A stretch of 32,326 bases of DNA from Olavius algarvensis Gamma 3 endosymbiont (GTDB lineage: Bacteria; Pseudomonadota; Gammaproteobacteria; GCA-001735895). The stretch is taken from positions 1,406,045 through 1,438,370 of the forward strand of contig DS021198.1 in assembly GCA_001735895.1 (NCBI GenBank). Reading direction: 5' to 3'. Position numbers and translations under genes: made by a program. Below, piece after piece: positions 45 to 20,739 of this stretch; within the stretch, counting starts at the first letter, position 1; every line of letters begins with the position of its first letter. The notes under the pieces were generated by a model. The model was not told where the DNA came from and searched no databases. It saw only the letters and a list, made by a program, of their open reading frames with translations.

Positions 45-476
45 TTGCTCGACTGGTTTGTATTTAATGGGGGTTTTCGCGTGACGGCCGGTATGTTCAA
101 ACACACCGGCAGCGTCGATTTTAGCGGTCAACTTCAAGGCAATATCTTAGTCGACGGGCAACCCCTTGCGACGGACGATCTAGGTGCTATTGACGGCGAA
201 GTCGAGCTCAGCGATTCGTATCAACCCTATCTTGGTATTGGCTGGGGCCGCGGCGCGGGCGGCACGGGCGGATTATCGTTTTCGGTCGATCTCGGCGTGG
301 CTATGCTCGACCCCGATGTCGATCTGAAAGCGACCGTAAATACCGGTGGCACTAACAGTTTAAACCAGGCCGAACTTGACAGCAGACTGGGCGAACTGGA
401 AAGCGACGCCGAAGATGATCTTGATGATTTGGAACGTTGGCCGGTATTGGCGTTCGGCGTCAATTATGCATTTTGA
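45..476 (+). CDS. C-terminal fragment of an outer-membrane beta-barrel-type protein (Gly-rich, alternating amphipathic strands, ends ...GVNYAF); upstream part missing or frameshifted
   Basis: ORF product ends with an aromatic residue (F) typical of OMP C-terminal strands. An in-frame stop at 18-20 prevents extension to the window edge in this frame, while frame 1 is open from position 1 to about 81, suggesting a truncated or frameshifted gene. Confidence 0.35.
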   Translation: MLDWFVFNGGFRVTAGMFKHTGSVDFSGQLQGNILVDGQPLATDDLGAIDGEVELSDSYQPYLGIGWGRGAGGTGGLSFSVDLGVAMLDPDVDLKATVNTGGTNSLNQAELDSRLGELESDAEDDLDDLERWPVLAFGVNYAF

Positions 477-506
477 TCGGGACTAACTCTGCTATCATTG
501 CAAACC

Positions 507-529
507 GCCGGCTAGCGGCTGTTTTTTTT
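507..529 (+). terminator. putative rho-independent terminator (short GC stem GCCG/CGGC followed by T8)
   Basis: gccggctagcggc stem-loop followed by tttttttt at 522-529, downstream of the 45..476 ORF. Confidence 0.4.
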
Positions 530-541
530 GGGTAGTAATCG

Positions 542-826
542 ATGACGCGAATGGTAAGTTGCCTGGTCCTGGGTGAAGAGGCTCCCGGGCTCGAAAAAGT
601 TCCCTATCCCGGCGAGCTCGGGCAACGGATATACGACAATGTTTCCGCCGAGGGCTGGCGCCAGTGGATTGAGCGCCAGACCATGATTATCAATGAAAAC
701 GGGTTGTCGACGATCGACCCGGCCAGCCTGGCGATTCTCGAACAGCATATGCTCGGATTTATTTTCAAGGAAGGCGAGCTCGGGCAGCAGCCGGAGGGAT
801 TCAGAGCGCCCGGCGCAAAAAAGTAA
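542..826 (+). CDS. yggX: Fe(II)-trafficking / oxidative-damage protection protein YggX
   Basis: 94-aa product MTRMVSCLVLGEEAPGLEKVPYPGELGQRIYDNVSAEGWRQWIERQTMIINE... aligns along its full length with the YggX family (E. coli [42 protein letters not shown]...). Confidence 0.85.
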   Translation: MTRMVSCLVLGEEAPGLEKVPYPGELGQRIYDNVSAEGWRQWIERQTMIINENGLSTIDPASLAILEQHMLGFIFKEGELGQQPEGFRAPGAKK

Positions 827-827
827 A

Positions 828-1994
828 TCAACCGGCCATATTTTCCAGCGTCCATTTCGGTTGCGTAATAAAACGGAGTTTGCCGTAGGCGCTTTGCAAC
901 GCGCCATATGTCTGTTCGAAATCCGGTCCCTGGGCGAAGATGAATCCTAGATAGCTCGCACCTTCAGGTAACGGGATTAACTCGTAACCCGGGTTGATGT
1001 GAATCTCGATATCCCTGACGAATTCGGTTTGCATGGCCGCGGTCAAACCTTCGACGCGTTTTAGAATGCCCGCGGCGGTAATCGGAATCATTAAAACACC
1101 AGCCGCTTCAGCCTGGTCATCGATTTCCGGCGTTATCCCGCACATGCCCCGGATTACGAGTTCCTCCAGCTTTTGCCGCAGCGAGAATTCGATCAACTGA
1201 CCGCACTGCCCACCAATGGTGCGCGCCGCGAGTTCGAGTAAAACCGGTCCCGTTACCGACAGACGCGCTTCGGCATGCACGGGCCCCTGTTCGAGGCCAT
1301 AGGCGTGGCAGCACTTCGTTATTTCTTCGACCAGCTGCCGCCGCTGCCCGGTATTCAACCGGGTAGGTGTGAGATAGTAAGTTTCTTCGAAAAAGGGCCC
1401 GCATAACGGTTCGGGTTTGTCGAAAATCGTTAATAACCTGAAATCACCACCGACCATGAATCCCTCGACAGCGTATTCGGGGCCGTCAATATAAGACTCA
1501 ACCAGCAGATGCTGGCGCGCAAAACCAGTGATTCCGACTGTTTCCAGGATGGCGTCGATACGTCGGCAGGCTGTATGGAACTCGATTTTGTTATCGGCGC
1601 GGATGACGCCGCGGCTGGCGGACAGGCCCAGCGGTTTGACGACGACCGGGTAAGGTAGTTGCAACTGCATAGCATCGATGTCTTGCAGCGCTACGAGTTG
1701 GAATAGCGGGATATTGCAGCCGGCCCTGGCAAGCGCTTCGCGTGCCAGATCCTTGCGCTGCGTGAGCAGGGCGGCAGCGGTTGTGTTGTGTGGCAGATCG
1801 AGCTTTCGCGCAAGGCGGCTACAGAGTTCGACGCAAGTGTCGTCGGTAGCCAGTACACATGCCACCGGTTTGCCTTCGATTGCGGCCAGAATGGTTTCGA
1901 GCGCGGCCTCGGGTTGCCCGAAATCGACCGTAATGCCGTTTGCAATATCCGGCACCAGCGAATGTTCGCTGTTGGAAATCACCATAATGGGCAT
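828..1994 (-). CDS. ATP-grasp domain protein (carboxylate-amine/peptide ligase-like), substrate unknown
   Basis: 388-aa ORF with the central ATP-grasp signature (...PYPVVVKPLGLSASRGVIRADNKIEF... ...LLVESYIDGPEYAVEGFMVGGDF...). It converges on yggX with only 1 nt between their stops. Confidence 0.7.
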   Translation of the reverse strand: MPIMVISNSEHSLVPDIANGITVDFGQPEAALETILAAIEGKPVACVLATDDTCVELCSRLARKLDLPHNTTAAALLTQRKDLAREALARAGCNIPLFQLVALQDIDAMQLQLPYPVVVKPLGLSASRGVIRADNKIEFHTACRRIDAILETVGITGFARQHLLVESYIDGPEYAVEGFMVGGDFRLLTIFDKPEPLCGPFFEETYYLTPTRLNTGQRRQLVEEITKCCHAYGLEQGPVHAEARLSVTGPVLLELAARTIGGQCGQLIEFSLRQKLEELVIRGMCGITPEIDDQAEAAGVLMIPITAAGILKRVEGLTAAMQTEFVRDIEIHINPGYELIPLPEGASYLGFIFAQGPDFEQTYGALQSAYGKLRFITQPKWTLENMAG

Positions 1995-2054
1995 ACCCAG
2001 CGTTCGCGCCGCCGAGCAATAGGCGGCGATGCGATAACTGCCGGATGGCGCCGC

Positions 2055-2084
2055 TAAAACAACAAAGCCGGCGGTGTGCCGGGC
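2055..2084 (-). terminator. rho-independent terminator downstream of the ErpA-like gene (minus strand)
   Basis: Read on the minus strand: GCCCGGCacaccGCCGGC hairpin followed by TTTGTTGTTTT (plus coordinates 2055-2084). Confidence 0.45.
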
Positions 2085-2142
2085 TTTGCGGGATTGTTAC
2101 GGTGGGTCTTAATTAGCGATCAAGTAGCGCTCAGCCGGAAAA

Positions 2143-2580
2143 TCAGGCGCAACCGCCACCGGCGGAACCACAGCCGCCGCAGACGCCGGAGCCGCCGGTT
2201 TCGGCAAACACGTTATTGAAAACGAAACGCTCGCGCCCGACTTCCTGGATATAATCGATCTGTGCGCCCTTGAGATAATTCAACGCCACCACGTCGACCA
2301 GAATCTTAAACCCGTCGAATTGCAAAATAGTGTCGAAATCGCCCTGCTCGTCGGTGAAGGTCATGCCGTATGACAGGCCGCCGCAGCCGCCGCCGCTGAT
2401 GTAAATACGAATCGCGGACACATCTTCGTCGGTCTGGGTGATAATCTCATGCAGCTTGTCCTGCGCCGGCTGGGTGACTTCCAGTTCGTTCACGGTCAGG
2501 CTGGGCTGAAATACTTCGGAACCGCTGCCAGAAACGCTAGGGCTGGCTTGCGGTGGGGTGTAAATACCTACGTTATCCAT
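2143..2580 (-). CDS. A-type Fe-S cluster carrier (ErpA/IscA/HesB family) with an N-terminal Ser/Pro-rich extension and an atypical Gly/Cys-rich C-terminus
   Basis: Core ...IRIYISGGGCGGLSYGMTFTDEQ...FKILVDVVALNYLKGAQIDYIQEVGRERFVFNNV... matches ErpA/IscA. The C-terminus is ...GVCGGCGSAGGGCA, i.e. C-x2-C plus an extra Cys rather than the canonical C-x-C. The first 35 residues (MDNVGIYTPPQASPSVSGSGSEVFQPS...) have no counterpart in ErpA. Confidence 0.7.
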   Translation of the reverse strand: MDNVGIYTPPQASPSVSGSGSEVFQPSLTVNELEVTQPAQDKLHEIITQTDEDVSAIRIYISGGGCGGLSYGMTFTDEQGDFDTILQFDGFKILVDVVALNYLKGAQIDYIQEVGRERFVFNNVFAETGGSGVCGGCGSAGGGCA

Positions 2581-2609
2581 TAATCGATACCTGTGTTGAT
2601 GATGAGCTG

Positions 2610-2617
2610 ATTATACA
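2610..2617 (-). promoter_or_regulatory. extended -10 element (TGTATAAT) of the promoter for the ErpA-like gene
   Basis: The minus strand reads gagTGtATAATcag about 33 nt upstream of the ATG at 2580. The -35 is weak (gtggct). Confidence 0.4.
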
Positions 2618-2806
2618 CTCGATTCGACGAAAGCCACATTAAATTGGCCTCTTATGCCATTGTTACCCGATACCCTGTACAGTTGGGGAATATTCCGACA
2701 ATTGCAAGCTTTCGTGCCGTAATAAAGGAGCTAATTGTCGTGTTTTATAGTGATACTTATGGGAGATTTTCGTATCATCCCCTTCTTTTTCCCCGAGGGT
2801 AACCCG

Positions 2807-4063
2807 ATGTTCACCAAATCAATGAATATTGCCGACTTCGATGCGGATCTGTGGCAGGCGATGGAAGACGAAGCAAAGCGCCAGGAAGATCATATCGAAC
2901 TGATCGCGTCCGAAAATTACACCAGTCCACGGGTGATGCAGGCGCAGGGTTCAGTGCTCACCAATAAATACGCCGAGGGTTATCCCGCCAAGCGTTACTA
3001 CGGTGGCTGCGAGTATGTCGACGTCGCGGAAGTACTCGCGCTCGAACGGGTTAAAAAAATCTTTAATGCGGATTACGCCAACGTGCAGCCGCACTCGGGG
3101 TCGCAGGCCAACGCGGCGGTATTTTTCGCGCTATTGAATGCCGGCGATACCGTGCTCGGCATGAGCCTGTCGGACGGCGGCCACCTGACGCACGGCGCCA
3201 AGGTCAACTTTTCGGGCAAGCTGTTCAATGCGGTCCAGTACGGCTTGAACAACGATACCGGAGAAATCGACTACGAGCAGGTCGAAGCACTGGCCAAAGA
3301 ACACCAGCCGAAGATGATCATCGCCGGTTTCTCGGCTTATTCGCGCATCATGGATTGGCAGCGTTTTCGCGATATTGCGGATTCGGTCGGCGCCTATTTG
3401 TTCGTGGATATGGCTCACGTCGCCGGTCTGGTGGCAGCGGGCCTCTATCCCAGTCCAGTCGGCATCGCCGATGTATGCACCAGCACCACCCATAAAACCC
3501 TGCGTGGACCGCGCGGTGGAATCATTTTGGCAAAGGCCAACGCGGAGATCGAAAAGAAACTCAATTCGATGGTTTTTCCGGGTACCCAGGGCGGCCCGCT
3601 GATGCACGCCGTCGCTGCCAAGGCGGTCGCTTTCAAGGAAGCCATGGGCGATGATTTTGTCGATTATCAGAAGCAGGTGCTGGTAAACGCCAACGCGATG
3701 GCCGAAGAGTTCATCAAGCGCGGTTTCGATGTAGTTTCTGGCGGAACCGATAACCACCTGTTCCTGTTGTCGCTGATCAGTAAGGGGATTACCGGTAAGG
3801 ATGCCGATGCTGCTATGAGCAAGGCGCATATTACGGTTAACAAGAATTCGGTGCCGAACGATCCGCAGTCGCCGTTCGTGACCTCGGGCCTGCGCATCGG
3901 TTCGCCCGCGATCACTACGCGCGGTTTCAACGAGCAGGATTCCCGCGACCTGGCCAATTGGATGAGCGATATACTCGACGATATGGGAAATGAAGATTTG
4001 ATCGCAACCGTCAGATCAAAGGTCAGCGATATCTGCGCCCGTCTGCCGGTTTACCGGAATTAA
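2807..4063 (+). CDS. glyA: serine hydroxymethyltransferase
   Basis: [60 protein letters not shown]... is the canonical GlyA N-terminus. Start chosen at the ATG at 2807 rather than the upstream ORF start at 2735. Confidence 0.95.
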
Positions 4064-4075
4064 AGCCGACGCATT

Positions 4076-4579
4076 ATGAAATGTCCTTTCTGCGGTACGC
4101 CCGATACGCGCGTGGTCGATTCGCGCCTCGCGTCGGAATCGGCCCAGGTGCGCCGCAGAAGGGAATGCGTGTCCTGCGAAACACGTTTCACTACTTACGA
4201 AGCGCCATTGCTGAACATGCCGATGGTGATCAAAAACGACGGCAGCCGTGACGCTTTCGATGAGATGCGGTTACGCAGCGGCATGATGCGCGCGCTGGAA
4301 AAGCGCCCGGTGTCGGCGGAGCAGATCGAAGACGCCATCAATCACATCAAACGCCAGCTGGTCGGCATCGATACCCGGGAAATATCGTCGCGCGAAATCG
4401 GCGCCATGGTGATGCACGAGTTACAGCGGGTCGACCAGGTCGCTTATATTCGATTCGCCTCCGTCTATCTGAGCTTCGAGGACATCCAGGCTTTCGAGGA
4501 AGCCATCCAAACCCTGGCCGCCGAACCAACCCCCGAAGAGCACCGTCGGCAAGTCCCCTTGATCGATGAGGAGAGCTGA
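4076..4579 (+). CDS. nrdR: transcriptional repressor NrdR (zinc ribbon + ATP-cone)
   Basis: MKCPFCGTPDTRVVDSRL...CETRFTTYE is the canonical NrdR N-terminus. The stop overlaps the ribD start (TGATG). Confidence 0.9.
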   Translation: MKCPFCGTPDTRVVDSRLASESAQVRRRRECVSCETRFTTYEAPLLNMPMVIKNDGSRDAFDEMRLRSGMMRALEKRPVSAEQIEDAINHIKRQLVGIDTREISSREIGAMVMHELQRVDQVAYIRFASVYLSFEDIQAFEEAIQTLAAEPTPEEHRRQVPLIDEES

Positions 4580-5694
4580 TGTCGCGGCAACAGCATCATC
4601 GTTGGATGGCGCAAGCGCTGCAACGGGCGCGTAAGGGATTTTACAGCACCCATCCCAATCCGCGCGTCGGCTGTGTGATTGTCAAGAACGGTAGGATGCT
4701 TGGCGCCGGCTGGCATGAATTCAGCGGCGGCCCGCATGCGGAAGTTAACGCAATTGCAGCGGCCGAGATTCCGGCCGGCGCCGATTTTTATGTTACCCTG
4801 GAACCCTGTTCTCACCACGGCCGCACGCCGCCCTGCGTCGACGCGCTTATCGCCGCCGGCGCGGCGCGGGTGATCGTCGCGATGCAGGATCCGAACCCCG
4901 AGGTCAGCGGGCGCGGGCTCGAGCAGTTGCGCGCCGGCGGCATCGAGGTAATCACCGGCGTACTCGAGTCGCAGGCGCGGGAGCTCAACCGCGGATTTAT
5001 AAAACGTATGGAGCGACAGCTGCCTTTTGTCAGCGTAAAAATGGCATTGTCCCTCGACGGCCGCAGCGCACTGGCAAACGGCGCCAGTAAATGGATTAGC
5101 GGCGAACCAGCGCGGCGTGACGTACAATTCCTGCGCGCTCGGGCCTCGGCCATTCTGAGTTCTTCGCAGACGGTGCTGGACGACGATCCATCTCTAAATC
5201 TGCGGCTGTCGAATCAGGAGTTAGGTCAGACACGGGAAGCGCGGCAGCCCATCCGGGTGCTGGTGGATTCCAAACTGCGCTTGAGCGGTCGGGAAAAAGT
5301 GTTTTCCAGCGCGGGCGAGATCTGGATTTATACTTGCAGCGACGATGCCGAGCGCAAGCATCGATTGCTCGAGCGCGGCGCGCAGGTGATCGAGATGACA
5401 GCGTCTGAGACGGGCGGGTTAAAGCTGAGTGCGATGCTGCAAGATATGGCCGCGCGCGGTATCAACGAAGTGCATACCGAATGCGGCAGCCGCCTCGCGG
5501 GCGCGCTGATCGAGCAGCGACTGGCCGATGAAATGATACTTTACCTGGCGCCGCATCTACTGGGTAGCCGGGCGCGCGGCGGATTCGACCTGGGCGAGCT
5601 GACCGCCATGGATCAGCGCAGGTCCTGTCGCATTTGCGATACCCGCCGGATTGGTGAGGATTTACGCTTGACCTTGAACTTCGAACAGGATTAA
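4579..5694 (+). CDS. ribD: bifunctional riboflavin biosynthesis protein RibD (pyrimidine deaminase / reductase)
   Basis: CMP/dCMP-deaminase zinc motifs (HAEVNAI, PCSHHGRTPPC) plus the C-terminal RibD reductase domain. Lies in the conserved nrdR-ribD synteny. Confidence 0.9.
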   Translation: MSRQQHHRWMAQALQRARKGFYSTHPNPRVGCVIVKNGRMLGAGWHEFSGGPHAEVNAIAAAEIPAGADFYVTLEPCSHHGRTPPCVDALIAAGAARVIVAMQDPNPEVSGRGLEQLRAGGIEVITGVLESQARELNRGFIKRMERQLPFVSVKMALSLDGRSALANGASKWISGEPARRDVQFLRARASAILSSSQTVLDDDPSLNLRLSNQELGQTREARQPIRVLVDSKLRLSGREKVFSSAGEIWIYTCSDDAERKHRLLERGAQVIEMTASETGGLKLSAMLQDMAARGINEVHTECGSRLAGALIEQRLADEMILYLAPHLLGSRARGGFDLGELTAMDQRRSCRICDTRRIGEDLRLTLNFEQD

Positions 5695-5696
5695 CC

Positions 5697-6269
5697 GTGT
5701 CGACTATTGTTGCCGTAATAAAAAATAGACAGGCCTGCATAGCCGCAGACAGCCTGACCAGCTTCGGCGATACTCGCCAGGCGGCTGAATTTGTCAGCGA
5801 CTACGAAAAGATTATCGCTTTTGCCGATCATAACCACATCGGTATAGTCGGTAGTGCGGCGCATCACCTGGTGATGCAAAATTTGCTGCAAAAGCATGCC
5901 GACAAGATTGATTTCTCTGATCGTTTCCATATTTTCGAGACCATGCGCCAGCTCCATCCGATACTAAAGGAGGAATACTTTCTCAACAGCAAAGATGAGG
6001 ATGACGATTCCTACGAGTCTTCCCGGGTCGATGCGCTCATCATGAATCGCACCGGCATTTTCGGGCTTTACTCGCTGCGAGAGGTCGATCAGTACACGCG
6101 CTTTTGGGCGGTTGGCTCGGGCGCCGAATTTGCGTTGGGCGCGATGCAGGTAGCCTGGGATCAATTCGATGAGGCCAGCGCAGTTGCGCGCGCCGGAATC
6201 GAGGCGGGTGCCTGCTTCGACACCGGTAGCGCTTTGCCCATGACCAGTTACAGTTTGGAGTTGGATTGA
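5697..6269 (+). CDS. HslV/proteasome beta-subunit-like N-terminal-nucleophile hydrolase (BPH/HslV-like), embedded in the rib operon
   Basis: GTG start 2 nt after the ribD stop; its stop overlaps the ribE ATG (TGATG). The product (M)STIVAVIKNRQACIAADSLTSFGDT...YEKIIAF...GIVGSAAHHLVM...FWAVGSGAEFALGAMQVAW parallels HslV: TTIVSV..IAGDGQ.T.G, Lys33, GSGG loop. Thr3, Asp18, Lys38 and GSGA are all present. Confidence 0.6.
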   Translation: MSTIVAVIKNRQACIAADSLTSFGDTRQAAEFVSDYEKIIAFADHNHIGIVGSAAHHLVMQNLLQKHADKIDFSDRFHIFETMRQLHPILKEEYFLNSKDEDDDSYESSRVDALIMNRTGIFGLYSLREVDQYTRFWAVGSGAEFALGAMQVAWDQFDEASAVARAGIEAGACFDTGSALPMTSYSLELD

Positions 6270-6934
6270 TGTTTACAGGAATCATCAAGGCGCTTGGCAG
6301 CGTCGCCGGCAGCGAACCACGCAACGGAGATATCCGGCTCACGATCGACTGCGGCGGCCTGGACCTGTCGCGCGCGCAACTTGGCGACAGCATTGCGGTT
6401 AACGGGGTATGTCTGACCGCGATCCAGCTCGGCGAGCAGTCTTTCAGCGCGGACGTTTCGTTGGAAACCATGGACAAGACCAGCCTCGGTGAACTCGCCC
6501 TTGGCAGCCCGGTCAATCTGGAACCCGCGCTGACGCTGAACGATGCCCTCGGGGGACATCTGGTCAGCGGACACGTGGACGGGGTCGGCAGGATGCTGGA
6601 GATGCAGCCGGACGCGCGCTCGATCCGGTACCGTTTTGAAATCGAACCCGCGCTGCAGCATTATGTCGCCACCAAGGGTTCGGTTACCATCGATGGCACC
6701 AGCCTGACGGTAAACCGCGTCGACGGCAATCGATTCGATGTTAATATTGTGCCGCATACCCAGCAGAAAACAGTATTCCAGTACTATCAGCCGGGTGCCC
6801 GGGTTAATATCGAAGTCGATATAATCGCGCGCTATCTCGAGCGCTTGCTGCAGGGCCGAGCCGATTCCAACTCAGACAAAGACCAACAGATGCTCGAAAC
6901 CCTGGTAAAATCGGGATTTATCAATCATGAATAA
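6269..6934 (+). CDS. ribE: riboflavin synthase (alpha subunit)
   Basis: MFTGIIKALGSV... with two lumazine-binding repeats. The ATG at 6269 overlaps the upstream stop. Confidence 0.9.
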   Translation: MFTGIIKALGSVAGSEPRNGDIRLTIDCGGLDLSRAQLGDSIAVNGVCLTAIQLGEQSFSADVSLETMDKTSLGELALGSPVNLEPALTLNDALGGHLVSGHVDGVGRMLEMQPDARSIRYRFEIEPALQHYVATKGSVTIDGTSLTVNRVDGNRFDVNIVPHTQQKTVFQYYQPGARVNIEVDIIARYLERLLQGRADSNSDKDQQMLETLVKSGFINHE

Positions 6935-7269
6935 ACCAGTTAAGCTAGCCTGCATATTGCATGAAGGCGGCACAAACTCCGGAGAAGTCACATAGATATC
7001 AAAGTATTAAGTCAATTATTCCGGAAAATGGCTGGTTACAGTTTGTGCCTGAACGAAATCAGGACCAATCCGCAGGATGCGGATTGGCGATGCGCAGCAA
7101 CCCCGAAGGGGTGTGCGCCATGGATGGCGCACATCAATAATCTGGCTGCCAATCTCGAACGATCCCCCTTGAGCCATAGCTATGGCTATGACTCGGCGGG
7201 CGATCGTCCGACCTTGTTTGCCAGATTTCCCCTGAGTTTCGTTCCCTTCATGCAATATCCAGGCTAGAT

Positions 7270-8367
7270 ATGAAGTTGAACTCGACCCAGGAAATCATTG
7301 ACGATATCAAAGCCGGAAAAATGGTGGTGATCATGGACGATGAAGACCGGGAGAACGAAGGCGATATTTTAATGGCCGCGGCGGCGGTTACCGCCGATAA
7401 CATCAATTTCATGGCCAAGTACGGACGCGGACTGATTTGCTTGACGCTGTCGGAACAACGCTGCAAACAATTGCGCCTGCCACTGATGGTGGGAGATAAC
7501 CGCGCCGCTATGGAAACCAATTTCACGGTTTCGATCGAGGCCGCCGTCGGGGTTACCACCGGGATTTCGGCGGCCGATCGCGCCGCTACTATTCAAGCCG
7601 CGATCGATGCCGATGCGACCCCGGAAAGCGTCGTGCAACCGGGGCATATATTTCCGGTGATGGCGCGTAAGGGCGGCGTTTTGTTTCGCGCCGGCCATAC
7701 CGAGGCGGGTTGCGATCTGGCCCGGCTGGCCGGTTTCGAGCCGGCAGCCGTCATTGTCGAAATACTGAATGACGACGGCTCGATGGCGCGACGCAAGGAT
7801 TTGGAAAAGTTCGCGATGAAGCACGATTTGAAAATCGGCACCATCGAGGATTTGATCCGATATCGAATCGAGAACGAACATACGGTTGAACGCATTGTCG
7901 AATCGCGTTTTGCCACCGATTTTGGCGAGTTCAAACTCTATGCCTTCGAGGATAGCATCGCCCAGGAGCTGCACCTGGCGCTGGTTAAGGGTACGATAAA
8001 TCCCGATAAACCGATTCCGGTGCGCGTGCACGTGCAAAATACGCTAACCGATTCTTTGGCGGGCACCCAGGGGCGTGGCTGGCCGCTGCGCGATGTCATG
8101 CAAACCATCGATAGCGCCGGCGAAGGCGTCATCGTATTTCTGCGCCAGGCGGAAACGCCCAAGGACATGGTGCACATGATCGAATCGATGATCCAGGCGC
8201 ATGGCGACGAAGATCATGGAGACGATCAGCGTACCTATGGGATCGGCGCGCAGATCTTGGCCGATCTCGGGGTGCGCAAAATGCGGCTGTTGAGCGCACC
8301 CAAGGTGTTCCACGGTCTGGCCGGCTTCGGACTCGAAGTAGTAGATTATTATTCTGATCAGGAGTAA
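7270..8367 (+). CDS. ribBA: 3,4-dihydroxy-2-butanone-4-phosphate synthase fused to a degenerate GTP cyclohydrolase II-like domain (RibBA / RibBX type)
   Basis: N-terminal domain carries ...[11 protein letters not shown]... (DHBP synthase). The C-terminal domain aligns to GCHII but reads [14 protein letters not shown] where RVHSECLTGE..CDCG is expected, so the zinc-ligand cysteines are absent. Confidence 0.85.
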
Positions 8368-8371
8368 CACA

Positions 8372-8845
8372 ATGACGGATGCCAACAAAATCGACGGTGA
8401 CTTGACGGTCAAGCAGGCGAAAATCGCCATTGTCGTCGGACGCTTCAACGGTTTTATCGTCGAAAGCCTGCTGAGTGCGGCGCTGGATACGCTGCAGCGG
8501 GCAGGAATCGACGCCGGCGATATCACGGTCAGCCATGTTCCCGGTGCGCTCGAAATTCCACTGGTGGCGCAAACTTACGCCGCCGCCGGTAAACATGACG
8601 CGGTGATTGCGCTGGGCGCGGTAATTCGCGGCTCCACTCCGCATTTCGATATCGTCGCCGGAGAGAGCGCCAAGTCGCTGTCTGCGCTGGCGCTGGCGCA
8701 TTCTTTGCCGGTAGTGAACGCGATTCTGACTACCGACACCATCGAGCAGGCGATTGAACGCGCCGGCACCAAGGCGGGCAACAAGGGAGCCGATGCCGCC
8801 ATGAGCGCGATGGAAATGATCAGCCTGCTGCGCAAGATCAAGTAG
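8372..8845 (+). CDS. ribH: 6,7-dimethyl-8-ribityllumazine synthase
   Basis: 157-aa product ...[24 protein letters not shown]...GALEIPL... is the canonical RibH. Confidence 0.9.
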
Positions 8846-8859
8846 GCATTGGTTCCCAC

Positions 8860-9300
8860 GTGAATGACAAGGCGCGATTTATCAAGCAGCGCAAGCATGC
8901 CCGTGACAAGGCCTTGCAGGCGCTGTACCAATGGCAGCTGTCGGGTGAAGATCTCGACTGGATAAGAGACCATTATCTAGAGGAGCAGGGGGTGTCTTCG
9001 GGCGACGAAGAATATTTTCTCGAATTACTATACCGGATTCCTCCTAGCGCCGTCGCCCTCGACGCGAAGTTTCGCAAGTATGTCACCAATTTTGAAGATC
9101 ATCTGGACCCTATAGAAACCAATATTTTACGTATTGCAACCCACGAGTTGGAGCATCATCCTGAGATTCCCTACAAGGTAGTGATCAACGAAGCGATCAA
9201 ACTCGCTAAAACCTATGGCGCCGAAGATAGCCATAAGTTTGTCAACGGGGTGCTCGATCCACTGTGTCGGGAGTTGCGCGAAATCGAAGCGGCCAGGTAA
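8860..9300 (+). CDS. nusB: transcription antitermination factor NusB
   Basis: 146-aa product ...ARDKALQALYQWQLSGE... matches the NusB family, in conserved ribH-nusB synteny. Confidence 0.9.
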   Translation: MNDKARFIKQRKHARDKALQALYQWQLSGEDLDWIRDHYLEEQGVSSGDEEYFLELLYRIPPSAVALDAKFRKYVTNFEDHLDPIETNILRIATHELEHHPEIPYKVVINEAIKLAKTYGAEDSHKFVNGVLDPLCRELREIEAAR

Positions 9301-10743: not shown

Positions 10744-11388
10744 ATGCTGCCGCGTCTGAAACTGTTGCTAATGTTATTGAGTCTGTGGTCGGGGGTAACG
10801 CTGGCGGCCGACACTGGCGTTAGGGTGATAGCGCTGTTCGCCAACAAGGCGCTACTGCAGATCGGCAACAAGCAGAAAATAGTTAGAACGGGCGAAACCT
10901 TCGAAGGCGTGCTGCTGCAAGCGGCTTCGGGACGCGGTGCAGTGGTCGTTATCGACGGCAAGCCGGTGAAACTGGGATTGAATCAATCGATTGCCGGAAA
11001 TTTCAAGAAACCGGAACGCAGCAGCCTGAAGATCTACCCCGATTCAATCGGGATGTATTTTGTCAATGGTACGATCAACGGCCAGCGCACACGATTTCTG
11101 GTTGACACCGGCGCCACCTTCGTGACTCTTAGCGGTAACAAGGCCAAGCAGCTTAACATCGATTTTCGCAAAGGTGTCCCCAATACCGTGCAAACTGCGT
11201 CTGCGCTGGTGCAGGCCTGGACCGTCAAGCTCGATGCCGTCCGTGTCGGCGGCATTCGCGTAAGCAATGTCAACGCCACCGTAATCGCCGGTGCGCAGCC
11301 CGCTGAAGTTCTGCTCGGCAACTCTTTTCTGGAACACACCCATATGCAGAAAGCAGGCTCGGTGCTGGAACTGAAGAAACGGTTTTGA
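10744..11388 (+). CDS. secreted retropepsin-like (clan AA) aspartic protease family protein
   Basis: Signal peptide (MLPRLKLLLMLLSLWSGVTLA) and DTGAT active-site motif (...FLVDTGATFVTLS...). The ATG immediately follows the pgpA stop (TAGATG). Confidence 0.7.
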   Translation: MLPRLKLLLMLLSLWSGVTLAADTGVRVIALFANKALLQIGNKQKIVRTGETFEGVLLQAASGRGAVVVIDGKPVKLGLNQSIAGNFKKPERSSLKIYPDSIGMYFVNGTINGQRTRFLVDTGATFVTLSGNKAKQLNIDFRKGVPNTVQTASALVQAWTVKLDAVRVGGIRVSNVNATVIAGAQPAEVLLGNSFLEHTHMQKAGSVLELKKRF

Positions 11389-13014: not shown

Positions 13015-13896
13015 ATGAAGAAAAGTAATTCAGTGTCCCGAGAAACGATCAATTGCGTGGTAATGTTTGCCGATGTGGCCGGCAGCACGGCCATGTACGA
13101 GAACATGGGCGACGATCTGGCGAGGGAACGTATCTCCAAGGCGTTGAACGCGCTGATTTCAATATCACGACGTCACAGCGGCAAGTTGGTAAAGACCATC
13201 GGTGACGAAATTCTGGTTTATTTTACCGATATCGATATGGCGGTGTTCGCCGCACAGGCGATTCAGGAAACCATGGAAGACGATCGTTCTCCCGAAACCA
13301 TCGGCGTATCGATCAGAATCGGTATGCAATTTGGCAGTGCCATCCTCGAGAACGACGATATATTCGGCGATACGGTAAATGTCGCGGCGCGTGTCGCGAG
13401 CATGGCCAAGGCGCGGCAGATTCTCTGCACCCAGGAAATCGCGTTTTTGGTGAAGAATGCGGATCTGTCCAATAGCATGCGCCCCTACGACCGTCTGCGC
13501 GTCAAGGGACGTAACGAGCAACTCGATGTTTACCTGTTTGCCTGGGAGCAGGAAGGCGACATTACCAACATGGCGACCGCCAGCAGTTTTACCAACCCGG
13601 CCCGTCACCAGCAAGTCAAGAGCCTGACTCTCAATTACGAGGGCGAACCCCACGAAATTTCGAATGAAACGACTTCTTACGTCCTCGGCCGGGACCGGGA
13701 CTGCGAGCTGTTAATCAAAGGTGACCTGATTTCTCGCTACCACTCCAAGATCGAGCATCGGCGGGGTAAGTTCATCATTACCGACCAGAGCACAAACGGC
13801 ACCTTCGTGCGCACCTCCGAAGGACAGACGTTTACCTGCGTCGCGAAGAGTTCACACTATTTGGCTCGGGATATATCAGCCTGGGTAAAAAAGTAG
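13015..13896 (+). CDS. class III adenylate/guanylate cyclase catalytic domain fused to a C-terminal FHA domain
   Basis: Cyclase motifs: VMFADVAGST (metal Asp), ...KTIGDEIL (second Asp, Lys), FGDTVNVAARV (Asn/Arg). The C-terminus ...YVLGRDRDCELLIKGDLISRYHSKIEHRRGKFIITDQSTNGTFV matches the FHA signature (GR..D..L....SR.H..I......I.D.STNGTFV). Confidence 0.75.
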   Translation: MKKSNSVSRETINCVVMFADVAGSTAMYENMGDDLARERISKALNALISISRRHSGKLVKTIGDEILVYFTDIDMAVFAAQAIQETMEDDRSPETIGVSIRIGMQFGSAILENDDIFGDTVNVAARVASMAKARQILCTQEIAFLVKNADLSNSMRPYDRLRVKGRNEQLDVYLFAWEQEGDITNMATASSFTNPARHQQVKSLTLNYEGEPHEISNETTSYVLGRDRDCELLIKGDLISRYHSKIEHRRGKFIITDQSTNGTFVRTSEGQTFTCVAKSSHYLARDISAWVKK

Positions 13897-19371: not shown

Positions 19372-20739
19372 ATGATGGGACAACTACCGGCGCAGCAGAA
19401 CGCATTGTTTTACGAGTTTTGCCTGGAAAAGCACATTCCAGACGAGCATCTTCTCCGCCAGATAGATCAGTTTCTCGACTTTGATCAAACCCGTGTCCAC
19501 CTTGACCCCTTTTATAGCCATACCGGCAGGCCGTCGATTGATCCTGAGCTCATGATTCGGATGTTATTGGTCGGCTATTGTTACGGCATCCGGTCAGAGC
19601 GACGGTTATGTGACGAGATCCGATACAACCTGGCCTACCGTTGGTTCTGTCGTTTGGGTTTGGAAGATAAAGTACCGGATCATTCAACATTTTCCAAGAG
19701 CCGGCATGGCCGCTTCCGGGATGCTGACCTGCTGAGACTGGTCTTTGATACGGTGGTGCAGCGCTGTAACGATGAAGGGCTCATCAAAGGCGAAGGCTTC
19801 GCCACCGATGCCAGCTATATCAAAGCCGATGCTTCCCGGCAGCGTATGGCCGATGGTCCGGTTGACTGGCAACCATCACCCACACAGTCACGGGCGGTAA
19901 GAGAATATCTGGATGCGCTAGACAACGATCCTTCAGCAACAAGAACACAGAAGAAAGTGTCTACCACCGATCCGATGGCACAGTGGGCGGGCGACAAAGG
20001 ACCAGGCCAGTTTTATTACAGCACCAATTACCTGATCGATATTGAACACAATGTCATCATGGATGTCGAGCCTACACCGGCTTATCGAATCGCTGAGGTC
20101 AGTAGCACTCGAACCATGATTGACCGGGTCGAAGAGAAACTGGCAATCAAACCTGAACGACTCATAGCCGATACCTCTTATGGCTCTGCGGAGATGCTGG
20201 ATTGGGTGGTGGAGCAAAAACAGATAGAGCCGCATATTCCGGTTTGGGATAAGTCTCACGGTAAACCGGGCATGTTTGGTCGGGCTGCATTCACCTGGGA
20301 TAACGAAGCCGATTGTTATTATTGCCCGGCGAACAAGCTACTGAGATGCAGAAATCGCCCATTCAAAAAACCGCGTTCACCCGTTACCAAAGCCAACACG
20401 ATTATCTATCGCTCAAGTCAGCATGACTGTAAAACCTGCGAACTTAAATATACTAGCCACAGAAAGATCGCCCGTAGTATCTATGAATCATCTCGTGACG
20501 TTGCCAGGGATATTTGCGAGACCACGGAATATTTACAATCCAGGAAAGACAGAAAAAAGGTTGAAGTGCTGTTCGCCCATCTTAAGCGAGTAATGAACTT
20601 TGACCGTTTACGATTGCGCGGTATCACTGGCGCACATGACGAATTTTTACTGGCAGCCACAGCGCAAAACCTGAAGAAGTTGGCGCAACAACGATTTAAA
20701 CCGCCTGATTACAGGATAGGTGCGCCTGCTTTATGCTAA
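19372..20739 (+). CDS. IS5-superfamily (IS1182-like) DDE transposase
   Basis: 455-aa product with an InsH-type N-terminal region (…LLRQIDQFLDFDQTRVHLDPFYSHTGRPSIDPELMIRMLLVGYCYGIRSERRLCDEIRYNLAYRWFC…), a DDE core, and a C-terminal Cys cluster (CYYCPANKLLRCRNRPF…CKTC). Confidence 0.85.
   Translation: MMGQLPAQQNALFYEFCLEKHIPDEHLLRQIDQFLDFDQTRVHLDPFYSHTGRPSIDPELMIRMLLVGYCYGIRSERRLCDEIRYNLAYRWFCRLGLEDKVPDHSTFSKSRHGRFRDADLLRLVFDTVVQRCNDEGLIKGEGFATDASYIKADASRQRMADGPVDWQPSPTQSRAVREYLDALDNDPSATRTQKKVSTTDPMAQWAGDKGPGQFYYSTNYLIDIEHNVIMDVEPTPAYRIAEVSSTRTMIDRVEEKLAIKPERLIADTSYGSAEMLDWVVEQKQIEPHIPVWDKSHGKPGMFGRAAFTWDNEADCYYCPANKLLRCRNRPFKKPRSPVTKANTIIYRSSQHDCKTCELKYTSHRKIARSIYESSRDVARDICETTEYLQSRKDRKKVEVLFAHLKRVMNFDRLRLRGITGAHDEFLLAATAQNLKKLAQQRFKPPDYRIGAPALC

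Follow-up and report, generated by a model that had tools for sequence, protein, structure and literature searches.

A BPH-family proteasome homologue with a probable N-terminal serine nucleophile, encoded between ribD and ribE in a gammaproteobacterial riboflavin operon

The Olavius algarvensis Gamma 3 endosymbiont carries within its riboflavin (rib) operon a gene for a 190-amino acid protein that belongs, by sequence and by predicted fold, to the BPH (beta-proteobacterial proteasome homologue) family. The gene lies between ribD and ribE in the stretch of DNA analyzed here, called the window (32,326 nucleotides (nt); contig DS021198.1 of assembly GCA_001735895.1, positions 1,406,045 to 1,438,370 of the forward strand). 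Direct support exists for its family membership, predicted fold, conserved catalytic residues, and operon position together with the conservation of that position. We consider it likely that the protein is a Ser-type BPH, which would form a two-ring, 14-subunit barrel that functions without an ATPase and uses its mature N-terminal residue, Ser1, as the nucleophile, and that its location in the rib operon reflects housekeeping co-expression.

The BPH family and its structure, the subtype with a serine nucleophile, and the occurrence of BPHs in gammaproteobacteria have already been described (Fuchs et al. 2018, PMC5777263; Valas and Bourne 2008, PMC3235984; PDB 5OVS, 5OVT, and 5OVU). The published operon contexts of BPH genes are arg, pyruvate dehydrogenase, and Hsp33, and their authors linked these loosely to stress. 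A riboflavin operon context was found neither in the BPH papers examined nor in full-text searches on BPH and proteasome homologues. Relative to the searchable literature, the rib-operon context, its conservation in every locus examined, and the strength of selection there thus appear to be new. The rib operon adds a fourth context to the three published ones, and it provides a small and testable set of candidate partners (RibD, RibE, and RibH). The rib-linked clade also supplies many natural sequences of the Ser-nucleophile subtype for alignment.

Family, predicted fold, and gene junctions

A phmmer search of PDB sequences matched the protein over its full length to the BPHs of Cupriavidus metallidurans (Cm-BPH; 5OVU, chain 5ovu_A, E = 8.2e-44) and Thiobacillus denitrificans (Td-BPH; 5OVS/5OVT, chain 5ovs_A, E = 1.6e-34). 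BPH chains were the sole significant matches in this search, and no HslV structure was returned even at E <= 10. Among Pfam families, PF00227 (Proteasome) alone was matched, barely over its cutoff (24.2 vs 22.4 bits). The NCBIfam HslV models TIGR03692 and NF003964 scored 16.0 and 17.2 bits, as against cutoffs of 157.75 and 137, and the scores of the NCBIfam 20S beta models were likewise far under their cutoffs. Outside the proteasome family, the Pfam and NCBIfam searches gave weak chance matches to PlsB only. The idea that the open reading frame (ORF) is a degenerate fragment of a rib gene was ruled out, as these searches show proteasome-family matches and no homology to rib enzymes.

The AlphaFold2 (AF2) model of the protein, a monomer built on a 55-sequence family alignment, has a mean predicted local distance difference test score of 96.6 and a predicted template modelling (TM) score of 0.91, and consists of alternating blocks of strands and helices, as in the proteasome-type sandwich fold. 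In a Foldseek comparison of this model with the PDB, the top six matches were BPH chains (TM 0.86–0.93, root mean square deviation (rmsd) 1.2–2.8 Å, 37–43% identity). The best of these was Td-BPH (5OVS; TM 0.93, rmsd 1.2 Å, 38% identity), and the TM score to Cm-BPH was 0.86. HslV chains followed with TM scores of 0.61–0.75 (best ~0.73–0.75) and 15–18% identity, and then 20S proteasome subunits with 14–20% identity. On this sequence comparison and modelled fold, the protein clearly belongs with the BPHs and should not be named 'HslV'. Several BPHs of metagenome-assembled genomes (MAGs) carry the NCBI name 'MFS transporter', and many carry the JGI name 'HslV' (P0032, P0036, P0281, P0305, P0334, P0353, and P0366); these labels look like annotation errors that have spread across the BPH family.

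The ORF is a real gene and not a chance one, since it matches a solved BPH with E = 8e-44, has 2693 homologues in databases at E <= 1e-3, and is called as an identical protein in 118 blocks of the assembly collection. An earlier, sequence-only reading of the window had described a 190-amino acid ORF that starts with GTG 2 nt past the ribD stop codon and overlaps ribE through TGATG, with the residues MSTIVAV, Asp18, Lys38, and GSGA, and had taken it for a short, BPH-type relative of the proteasome and HslV. The coordinates and the quoted residues were all confirmed, and the family proposal is borne out by phmmer, Pfam, the AF2 model with its Foldseek superposition on BPH (TM 0.93), and comparative genomics. 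The same reading had named the neighbors as ribD and ribE, which agrees with the Pfam RibD and Lum_binding domains found at locus L001. The rib and neighboring proteins of L001 are 99–100% identical to those of the window, and the Pfam calls for the flanking genes were made on that locus. It had also stated that GSGA stands where HslV has GSGG. Of this statement, the presence of GSGA (6114–6125, in FWAVGSGAEFALGAM) was confirmed.

The ribD stop codon (TAA) is followed by CC and then by the GTG of the BPH gene, and no in-frame start codon 5' of this GTG was found in the list of ORFs. At the other end, the TGA of the BPH gene (6267–6269) and the ATG of ribE (6269–6271) overlap by 1 nt. The first possible ribE start in the ORF list is a TTG at 6266, and the gene calls on identical contigs take the ATG, giving 221 amino acids. 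The overlapping stop and start codons, along with Shine-Dalgarno motifs embedded in the preceding genes, indicate co-transcription and translational coupling of the BPH gene with its neighbors. They do not indicate equal amounts of protein, and an earlier proposal of expression stoichiometric with the rib enzymes goes beyond what such codons show. Counts of promoter-like and terminator-like sites around the BPH gene were not above those in shuffled controls. No FMN riboswitch or other known RNA was detected in the whole window at gathering thresholds, with only sub-threshold matches at chance level in the region 2000–9000. The operon contains no gene for an AAA+ unfoldase, the neighbors of the BPH gene being nrdR, ribD, ribE, ribBA, ribH, nusB, thiL, and pgpA.

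Table 1. Positions in the window of the BPH gene, its key residues, and the genes of the surrounding string
Feature	Position	Strand	Remarks
nrdR	4076..4579	+	First gene of the tight gene string; 3' end overlaps ribD start; Pfam Zn_ribbon_NrdR and ATP-cone (identical L001 protein)
ribD (deaminase/reductase)	4579..5694	+	371 amino acids; TAA at 5692-5694; Pfam dCMP_cyt_deam_1 and RibD_C
AGGA, Shine-Dalgarno-like motif	5687..5690	+	Within ribD 3' end, 6 nt 5' of BPH start codon; read from the sequence
BPH-family proteasome homologue	5697..6269	+	190 amino acids, GTG start; phmmer, Pfam, AF2, Foldseek
Ser2 codon, putative N-terminal nucleophile (mature Ser1)	5700..5702	+	Family conservation and published Td-BPH numbering
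Asp18 codon (mature Asp17)	5748..5750	+	Invariant in alignment A1 and in 81 rib-linked sequences
Lys38 codon (mature Lys37; proteasome Lys33 equivalent)	5808..5810	+	Invariant; equivalence from BPH literature
Acidic pore loop, residues 95-111, FLNSKDEDDDSYESSRV	5979..6029	+	17 residues with at least 5 Asp/Glu in 81/81 rib-linked sequences
G140-S141-G142 loop	6114..6122	+	Invariant; Ser corresponds to Td-BPH Ser139, which hydrogen bonds the nucleophile (role from literature)
GGAG motif before ribE	6257-6260	+	8 nt upstream of ribE ATG
ribE (riboflavin synthase)	6269..6934	+	221 amino acids; ATG shares 1 base with BPH TGA; Pfam Lum_binding; same start base called in L001
ribBA (DHBP synthase / GTP cyclohydrolase II)	7270..8367	+	Pfam DHBP_synthase and GTP_cyclohydro2
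ribH (lumazine synthase)	8372..8845	+	Pfam DMRL_synthase
nusB	8860..9300	+	Followed by thiL and pgpA in the same orientation

Active site and N-terminal nucleophile

The N-terminus and catalytic residues were compared across 91 full-length proteins, which are the 50%-identity representatives from an exhaustive search (645 clusters at E <= 1e-3). Of these representatives, 57 have Ser and 30 have Thr as residue 2 (87/91, 96% Ser/Thr), while residue 3 is more varied, with Thr in 60 proteins, Val in 17, and Ile in 12. An Asp occurs at the position of gene residue 18, 16 residues past residue 2, in 89 of the 91. The family-wide N-terminal pattern is M-[ST]-[TVI], with rare members beginning MGT or MPT. 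Asp18 and Lys38 are invariant in an alignment of 55 diverse BPHs (alignment A1). In 81 rib-linked sequences, Ser2, Asp18, Lys38, Gly52, and the Gly140-Ser141-Gly142 loop are all invariant, and the proteins of all 80 relatives start (M/V/L)-S-T.

The catalytic residues of Td-BPH are numbered Thr-1, Asp-17, Lys-37, Gly-50, and Ser-139 (Fuchs et al. 2018, PMC5777263). Numbered from the residue after the initiator methionine, the protein encoded in the window has Ser1, Asp17, and Lys37, in exact agreement with the positions in Td-BPH. The phmmer alignment places Thr3 of the query on residue 2 of the PDB chains, such that Ser2 corresponds to Thr1; the PDB chains begin at the mature Thr1, and the Cm-like representative P0239 reads MTTCVVV. 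Mass spectrometry of Cm-BPH found that the start methionine alone is removed, and BPHs are reported to lack propeptides and to have Ser1 outside the Betaproteobacteria (Fuchs et al. 2018, PMC5777263). As residue 2 is a conserved hydroxyl residue located 16 residues before the aspartate, as in the Thr1/Asp17 geometry, and as the published BPH numbering agrees, the nucleophile is most likely Ser2, which would become Ser1 upon removal of the methionine, with no propeptide.

The sequence-only reading had preferred a different assignment, in which autocatalytic loss of Met-Ser, as a dipeptide propeptide, exposes Thr3 as the nucleophile, and had named serine as its alternative. The family N-termini and published numbering favor that alternative. 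Within the rib-linked clade, Thr3 is as invariant as Ser2, which weighs against our assignment, and the two are separable only by the wider family and published work. A nucleophilic Thr3 would also fit the local phmmer alignments, which open at this residue, the rare family members with an MGT or MPT start, and a single metagenome contig with a proline in place of Ser2 in an otherwise identical gene. We nonetheless regard it as very unlikely: Ser2, not Thr3, aligns to the mature Thr1 of the PDB chains (as also seen with P0239), 29 of the 91 representatives carry Val or Ile at residue 3 whereas residue 2 is nearly always Ser or Thr, the aspartate has the spacing from residue 2 expected of Thr1 and Asp17, and propeptide-free BPHs with Ser1 outside the Betaproteobacteria have been described (Fuchs et al. 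2018, PMC5777263).

The contig just mentioned (ERZ27247855, locus L100, 1501–2073; protein P0001) differs by a single T-to-C change that turns TCG into CCG, and thus Ser2 into Pro, at the equivalent of window position 5700. If real, this would be a variant without the putative nucleophile; a rare allele or a fault of the assembly is just as plausible. As one base in one metagenome contig, it was set aside as too weak to serve as evidence on the nucleophile.

The protein resembles Td-BPH and Cm-BPH in its family, by sequence and predicted fold, and in its set of Asp17, Lys37, and Gly-Ser-Gly loop. Like them, it appears by sequence to be free of a propeptide, has the long acidic pore loop that is a BPH hallmark, has no adjoining ATPase gene, and is encoded in a housekeeping operon. 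It differs from them in having Ser rather than Thr as its putative nucleophile (a subtype already noted outside betaproteobacteria), in its host, an uncultured gammaproteobacterium, in its operon, which is for riboflavin biosynthesis, and in sequence (37–43% identity). With HslV (ClpQ), the evolutionary ancestor of BPH, it shares the Ntn-hydrolase alpha-beta-beta-alpha fold (TM ~0.73–0.75), an N-terminal hydroxyl nucleophile that would be exposed by methionine removal, and probably two stacked rings, an arrangement known for HslV. Identity to HslV is low (15–18%), and the protein falls short of the HslV equivalog models. Furthermore, HslV forms 12-mers that need HslU and have a short basic pore region, whereas BPHs form 14-mers with an acidic loop and no known ATPase. 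Bacillus subtilis CodW is reported to have an N-terminal Ser nucleophile, as do few members of the proteasome family, and is described as an HslV that is active only with the ATPase CodX. The 20S proteasome beta subunits share the fold, probably a mechanism of the Thr/Ser1-Asp17-Lys33 type, and a PF00227 match over the cutoff. Unlike the 20S proteasome, the BPH of the window has neither alpha subunits nor an apparent propeptide, would have two rings (as is the BPH type) rather than four, and shows only 14–20% identity.

Conservation of the position in the rib operon

With an alignment of the close clade (alignment A3) as the seed, a search through a single genome for each GTDB species found 141 relatives, and the 80 best were compared with the window. 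These 80 loci come from 80 different species, nearly all represented by MAGs labelled 'Gammaproteobacteria bacterium', with a few Thiotrichales or Thiotrichaceae. Three loci are labelled as other phyla and may be binning errors. We observed by tblastn with the window proteins that ribD is located 5' and ribE 3' of the BPH gene in 80/80 loci, wherever the locus reaches, so that recurrence between ribD and ribE, which the sequence-only reading had suggested surveying, holds throughout this set. The order nrdR-ribD-BPH-ribE-ribBA-ribH-nusB is kept in all 80 as far as the loci extend, with glyA upstream in most. Neither the window nor any of the 80 loci has an hslU gene adjoining the BPH gene.

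This order is retained over considerable divergence. Identity to the BPH of the window ranges from 56 to 88%, while that of RibD goes down to ~47% (near-full-length matches; two lower values are from partial ribD matches) and that of NusB to 36%. The BPH is more conserved than RibD in 74/74 loci and than RibE in 73/77, and less conserved than RibBA and GlyA. Three metagenome proteins show the same context: P0314 (56% identity) shows the whole gene order from nrdR to pgpA, P0312 has ribE, ribBA, ribH, and nusB downstream, and P0363 is located between a gene with a RibD_C domain and ribE.

The spacer between ribD and the BPH gene is usually -22 to +30 nt, with a few up to 76 nt, and that between the BPH gene and ribE is -1 to +27 nt (L007 has no reliable ribE start). 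Several observations weigh against a uniformly tight and conserved arrangement. The ribD-BPH spacer extends to 986, 687, and 230 nt in L054, L065, and L066, respectively, and the BPH-ribE spacer to 93 nt in L041. The scan is also biased toward relatives of the window, such that loss or relocation among the weaker matches of the 141 would not show. In L054 (652–1209) and L065 (1158–1733), the spacer contains an extra gene, encoding 185 and 191 amino acids, respectively, with a hydrophobic, signal-peptide-like N-terminus. The BPH gene still adjoins ribE in both loci despite the inserted gene.

Six more distant BPHs, with 48–55% identity to the window protein, have contexts outside the rib operon. 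P0299, from Pyrinomonadaceae, has no obvious operon partner; P0289 is downstream of DUF4037/AAA_18; P0375, a Thr-type BPH, is upstream of Hsp33, a published context; P0357, from Verrucomicrobia, occurs with RidA-like and GFA genes; P0280 is downstream of phosphoglucomutase; and P0378 is in a PorV/LPG-synthase cluster. These proteins have the active-site residues and acidic pore loop in common with the rib-linked clade. In the locus of P0375 (L091, 5001–7643), the gene order is BPH, Hsp33, a FMN_bind_2 (PaiB-like flavin-binding) protein, and Hsp15; this is a second, independent instance of a BPH beside a flavin-related gene.

In a neighbor-joining tree with E. coli HslV as the outgroup, the window protein falls among the BPH representatives. 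The rib-linked proteins group in a single clade, with all six BPHs from other contexts falling outside it, and the nearest pair beyond this clade includes P0363, itself rib-linked. The simplest history suggested by these sequences is that the gene entered the rib operon once, in an ancestral gammaproteobacterium, and was retained thereafter.

Possible role and other features of the neighborhood

The features above suggest the following mechanism. Removal of the initiator methionine would leave Ser1 with a free amino group as an N-terminal nucleophile, with Asp17, Lys37 (residues 18 and 38 of the gene product), and the Gly-Ser-Gly loop in assisting roles. Fourteen subunits would assemble into a two-ring barrel enclosing the active sites, and the long acidic pore loop, lining the entrance, would probably restrict entry and may contact substrate. 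The protein would be an ATPase-independent peptidase, with no unfoldase involved. Both the 14-mer assembly and the peptidase activity are inferred from solved relatives. The gene would have been inserted once between ribD and ribE in the ancestor of an uncultured gammaproteobacterial clade and kept by strong purifying selection. Its position would provide steady co-expression at a housekeeping level, and the protein is probably not an enzyme of the riboflavin pathway.

This proposal is at its weakest in explaining why the gene is located in the rib operon. By analogy with other BPHs, constitutive co-expression is probably the better explanation, because BPHs elsewhere occur in arg, pyruvate dehydrogenase complex (PDC), and Hsp33 operons and because Cm-BPH was not found to bind its PDC operon partners. 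Some points weigh against the proposal. Published BPHs showed no activity in vitro on casein or standard peptides, so that 'peptidase' derives from active-site chemistry and from inhibitor labelling of relatives. Additionally, retention at one operon position over deep divergence would also fit a direct functional tie to riboflavin synthesis, and co-expression leaves this retention unexplained.

Such a tie would mean that the BPH acts on the riboflavin pathway, by trimming, maturing, or degrading RibD, RibE, the RibH/RibE complex, or damaged flavoproteins, and that the position of its gene reflects partnership. The persistence of the ribD-ribE position in all 80 loci and the three metagenome cases, its hold on ribE where genes have been inserted (L054 and L065), and the tighter constraint on BPH than on RibD or RibE are all consistent with this explanation. 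We consider it unlikely, as identical catalytic residues and an acidic loop are found in BPHs whose genes have unrelated neighbors (Hsp33, RidA/GFA, PorV/LPG synthase) or no obvious operon partner, Cm-BPH was not seen to bind its operon partners, the PDC subunits, in published pull-downs, and inertia can also hold genes inside tight operons. The same considerations bear on the suggestion, made in the sequence-only reading, of flavin-enzyme quality control or turnover of Rib proteins: the position of the gene is its sole support, and close BPHs with the same active site are found in unrelated contexts. RibD, RibE, RibBA, and RibH (371, 221, 365, and 157 amino acids) also look to be of usual length, with no extension that would need processing. 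Equally, it seems quite unlikely that the rib-linked BPH has a specific substrate in flavin metabolism, for instance by controlling how much riboflavin synthase or lumazine synthase is present or how either assembles, or by clearing damaged flavoenzymes. If it did, the rib operon would be the first context to point to a natural substrate of any BPH. If there is no link to flavin, the case adds weight to the view that BPH genes are passengers in housekeeping operons and are expressed constitutively.

The protein might instead no longer be a protease, having become an amidohydrolase of small molecules, some other new enzyme of flavin metabolism, or a catalytically silent scaffold. The lack of activity of BPHs on standard protease substrates, the existence of a family relative, connectase, that is a ligase and not a protease, and the location of the gene among biosynthetic genes are compatible with such a change of function, which we nevertheless judge highly improbable. 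The full Ntn catalytic set is invariant, and Td-BPH and Cm-BPH are labelled by proteasome-specific peptide inhibitors, both of which argue against a silent scaffold. The rib-linked clade, moreover, has the same active-site residues and pore loop as BPHs outside the rib operon, and we know of no bacterial riboflavin step after GTP cyclohydrolase II (within RibBA) that requires amide hydrolysis. That the protein is a second HslV working with an HslU encoded elsewhere in the genome is hardly credible and was rejected on the equivalog scores (16–17 bits vs cutoffs of 137–158), phmmer (no HslV match at E <= 10), and Foldseek (structural likeness clearly lower than to BPH): several source databases do name homologues 'HslV', and BPH does descend from HslV according to the BPH literature, but the residues that contact HslU are reported not to be conserved in BPH, Cm-BPH did not pull down HslU, and the operon has no AAA+ gene.

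The neighborhood of the BPH gene has several other features. The spacer between ribE and ribBA (6935–7269) is 335 nt in length, as compared to ~20 nt in most relatives, and contains terminal inverted repeats of ~45 nt with 83% identity (6945–6989 and 7224–7267). From its sequence, the element in this spacer looks like an insertion of the miniature inverted-repeat transposable element type. It is present in L001 and L003, and contains only weak, sub-threshold Rfam matches. In L002, the element is retained with a ~70-nt insertion close to its end, and unrelated genes (LysR and OYE) follow in place of ribBA.

Directly past pgpA, at the end of the gene string, is a gene (10744–11388, + strand) for a 214-amino acid retropepsin-like aspartyl protease (Pfam gag-asp_proteas/Asp_protease_2). 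This gene occurs at the same place in a distant relative (L094), making it a second unusual protease conserved in the neighborhood. An insertion sequence (IS)-type DDE transposase with DUF772 and DDE_Tnp_1 domains is encoded at 19372–20739 (+ strand). The same set of transposase domains occurs in L001 at 129–1511 (- strand), at a different site beside the glyA-rib region, and the differing sites suggest an active IS in the population. Lastly, a gene at 13015–13896 (+ strand), between gltX and the aconitase gene, encodes a 293-amino acid protein with an adenylate/guanylate cyclase catalytic domain and a C-terminal FHA domain.

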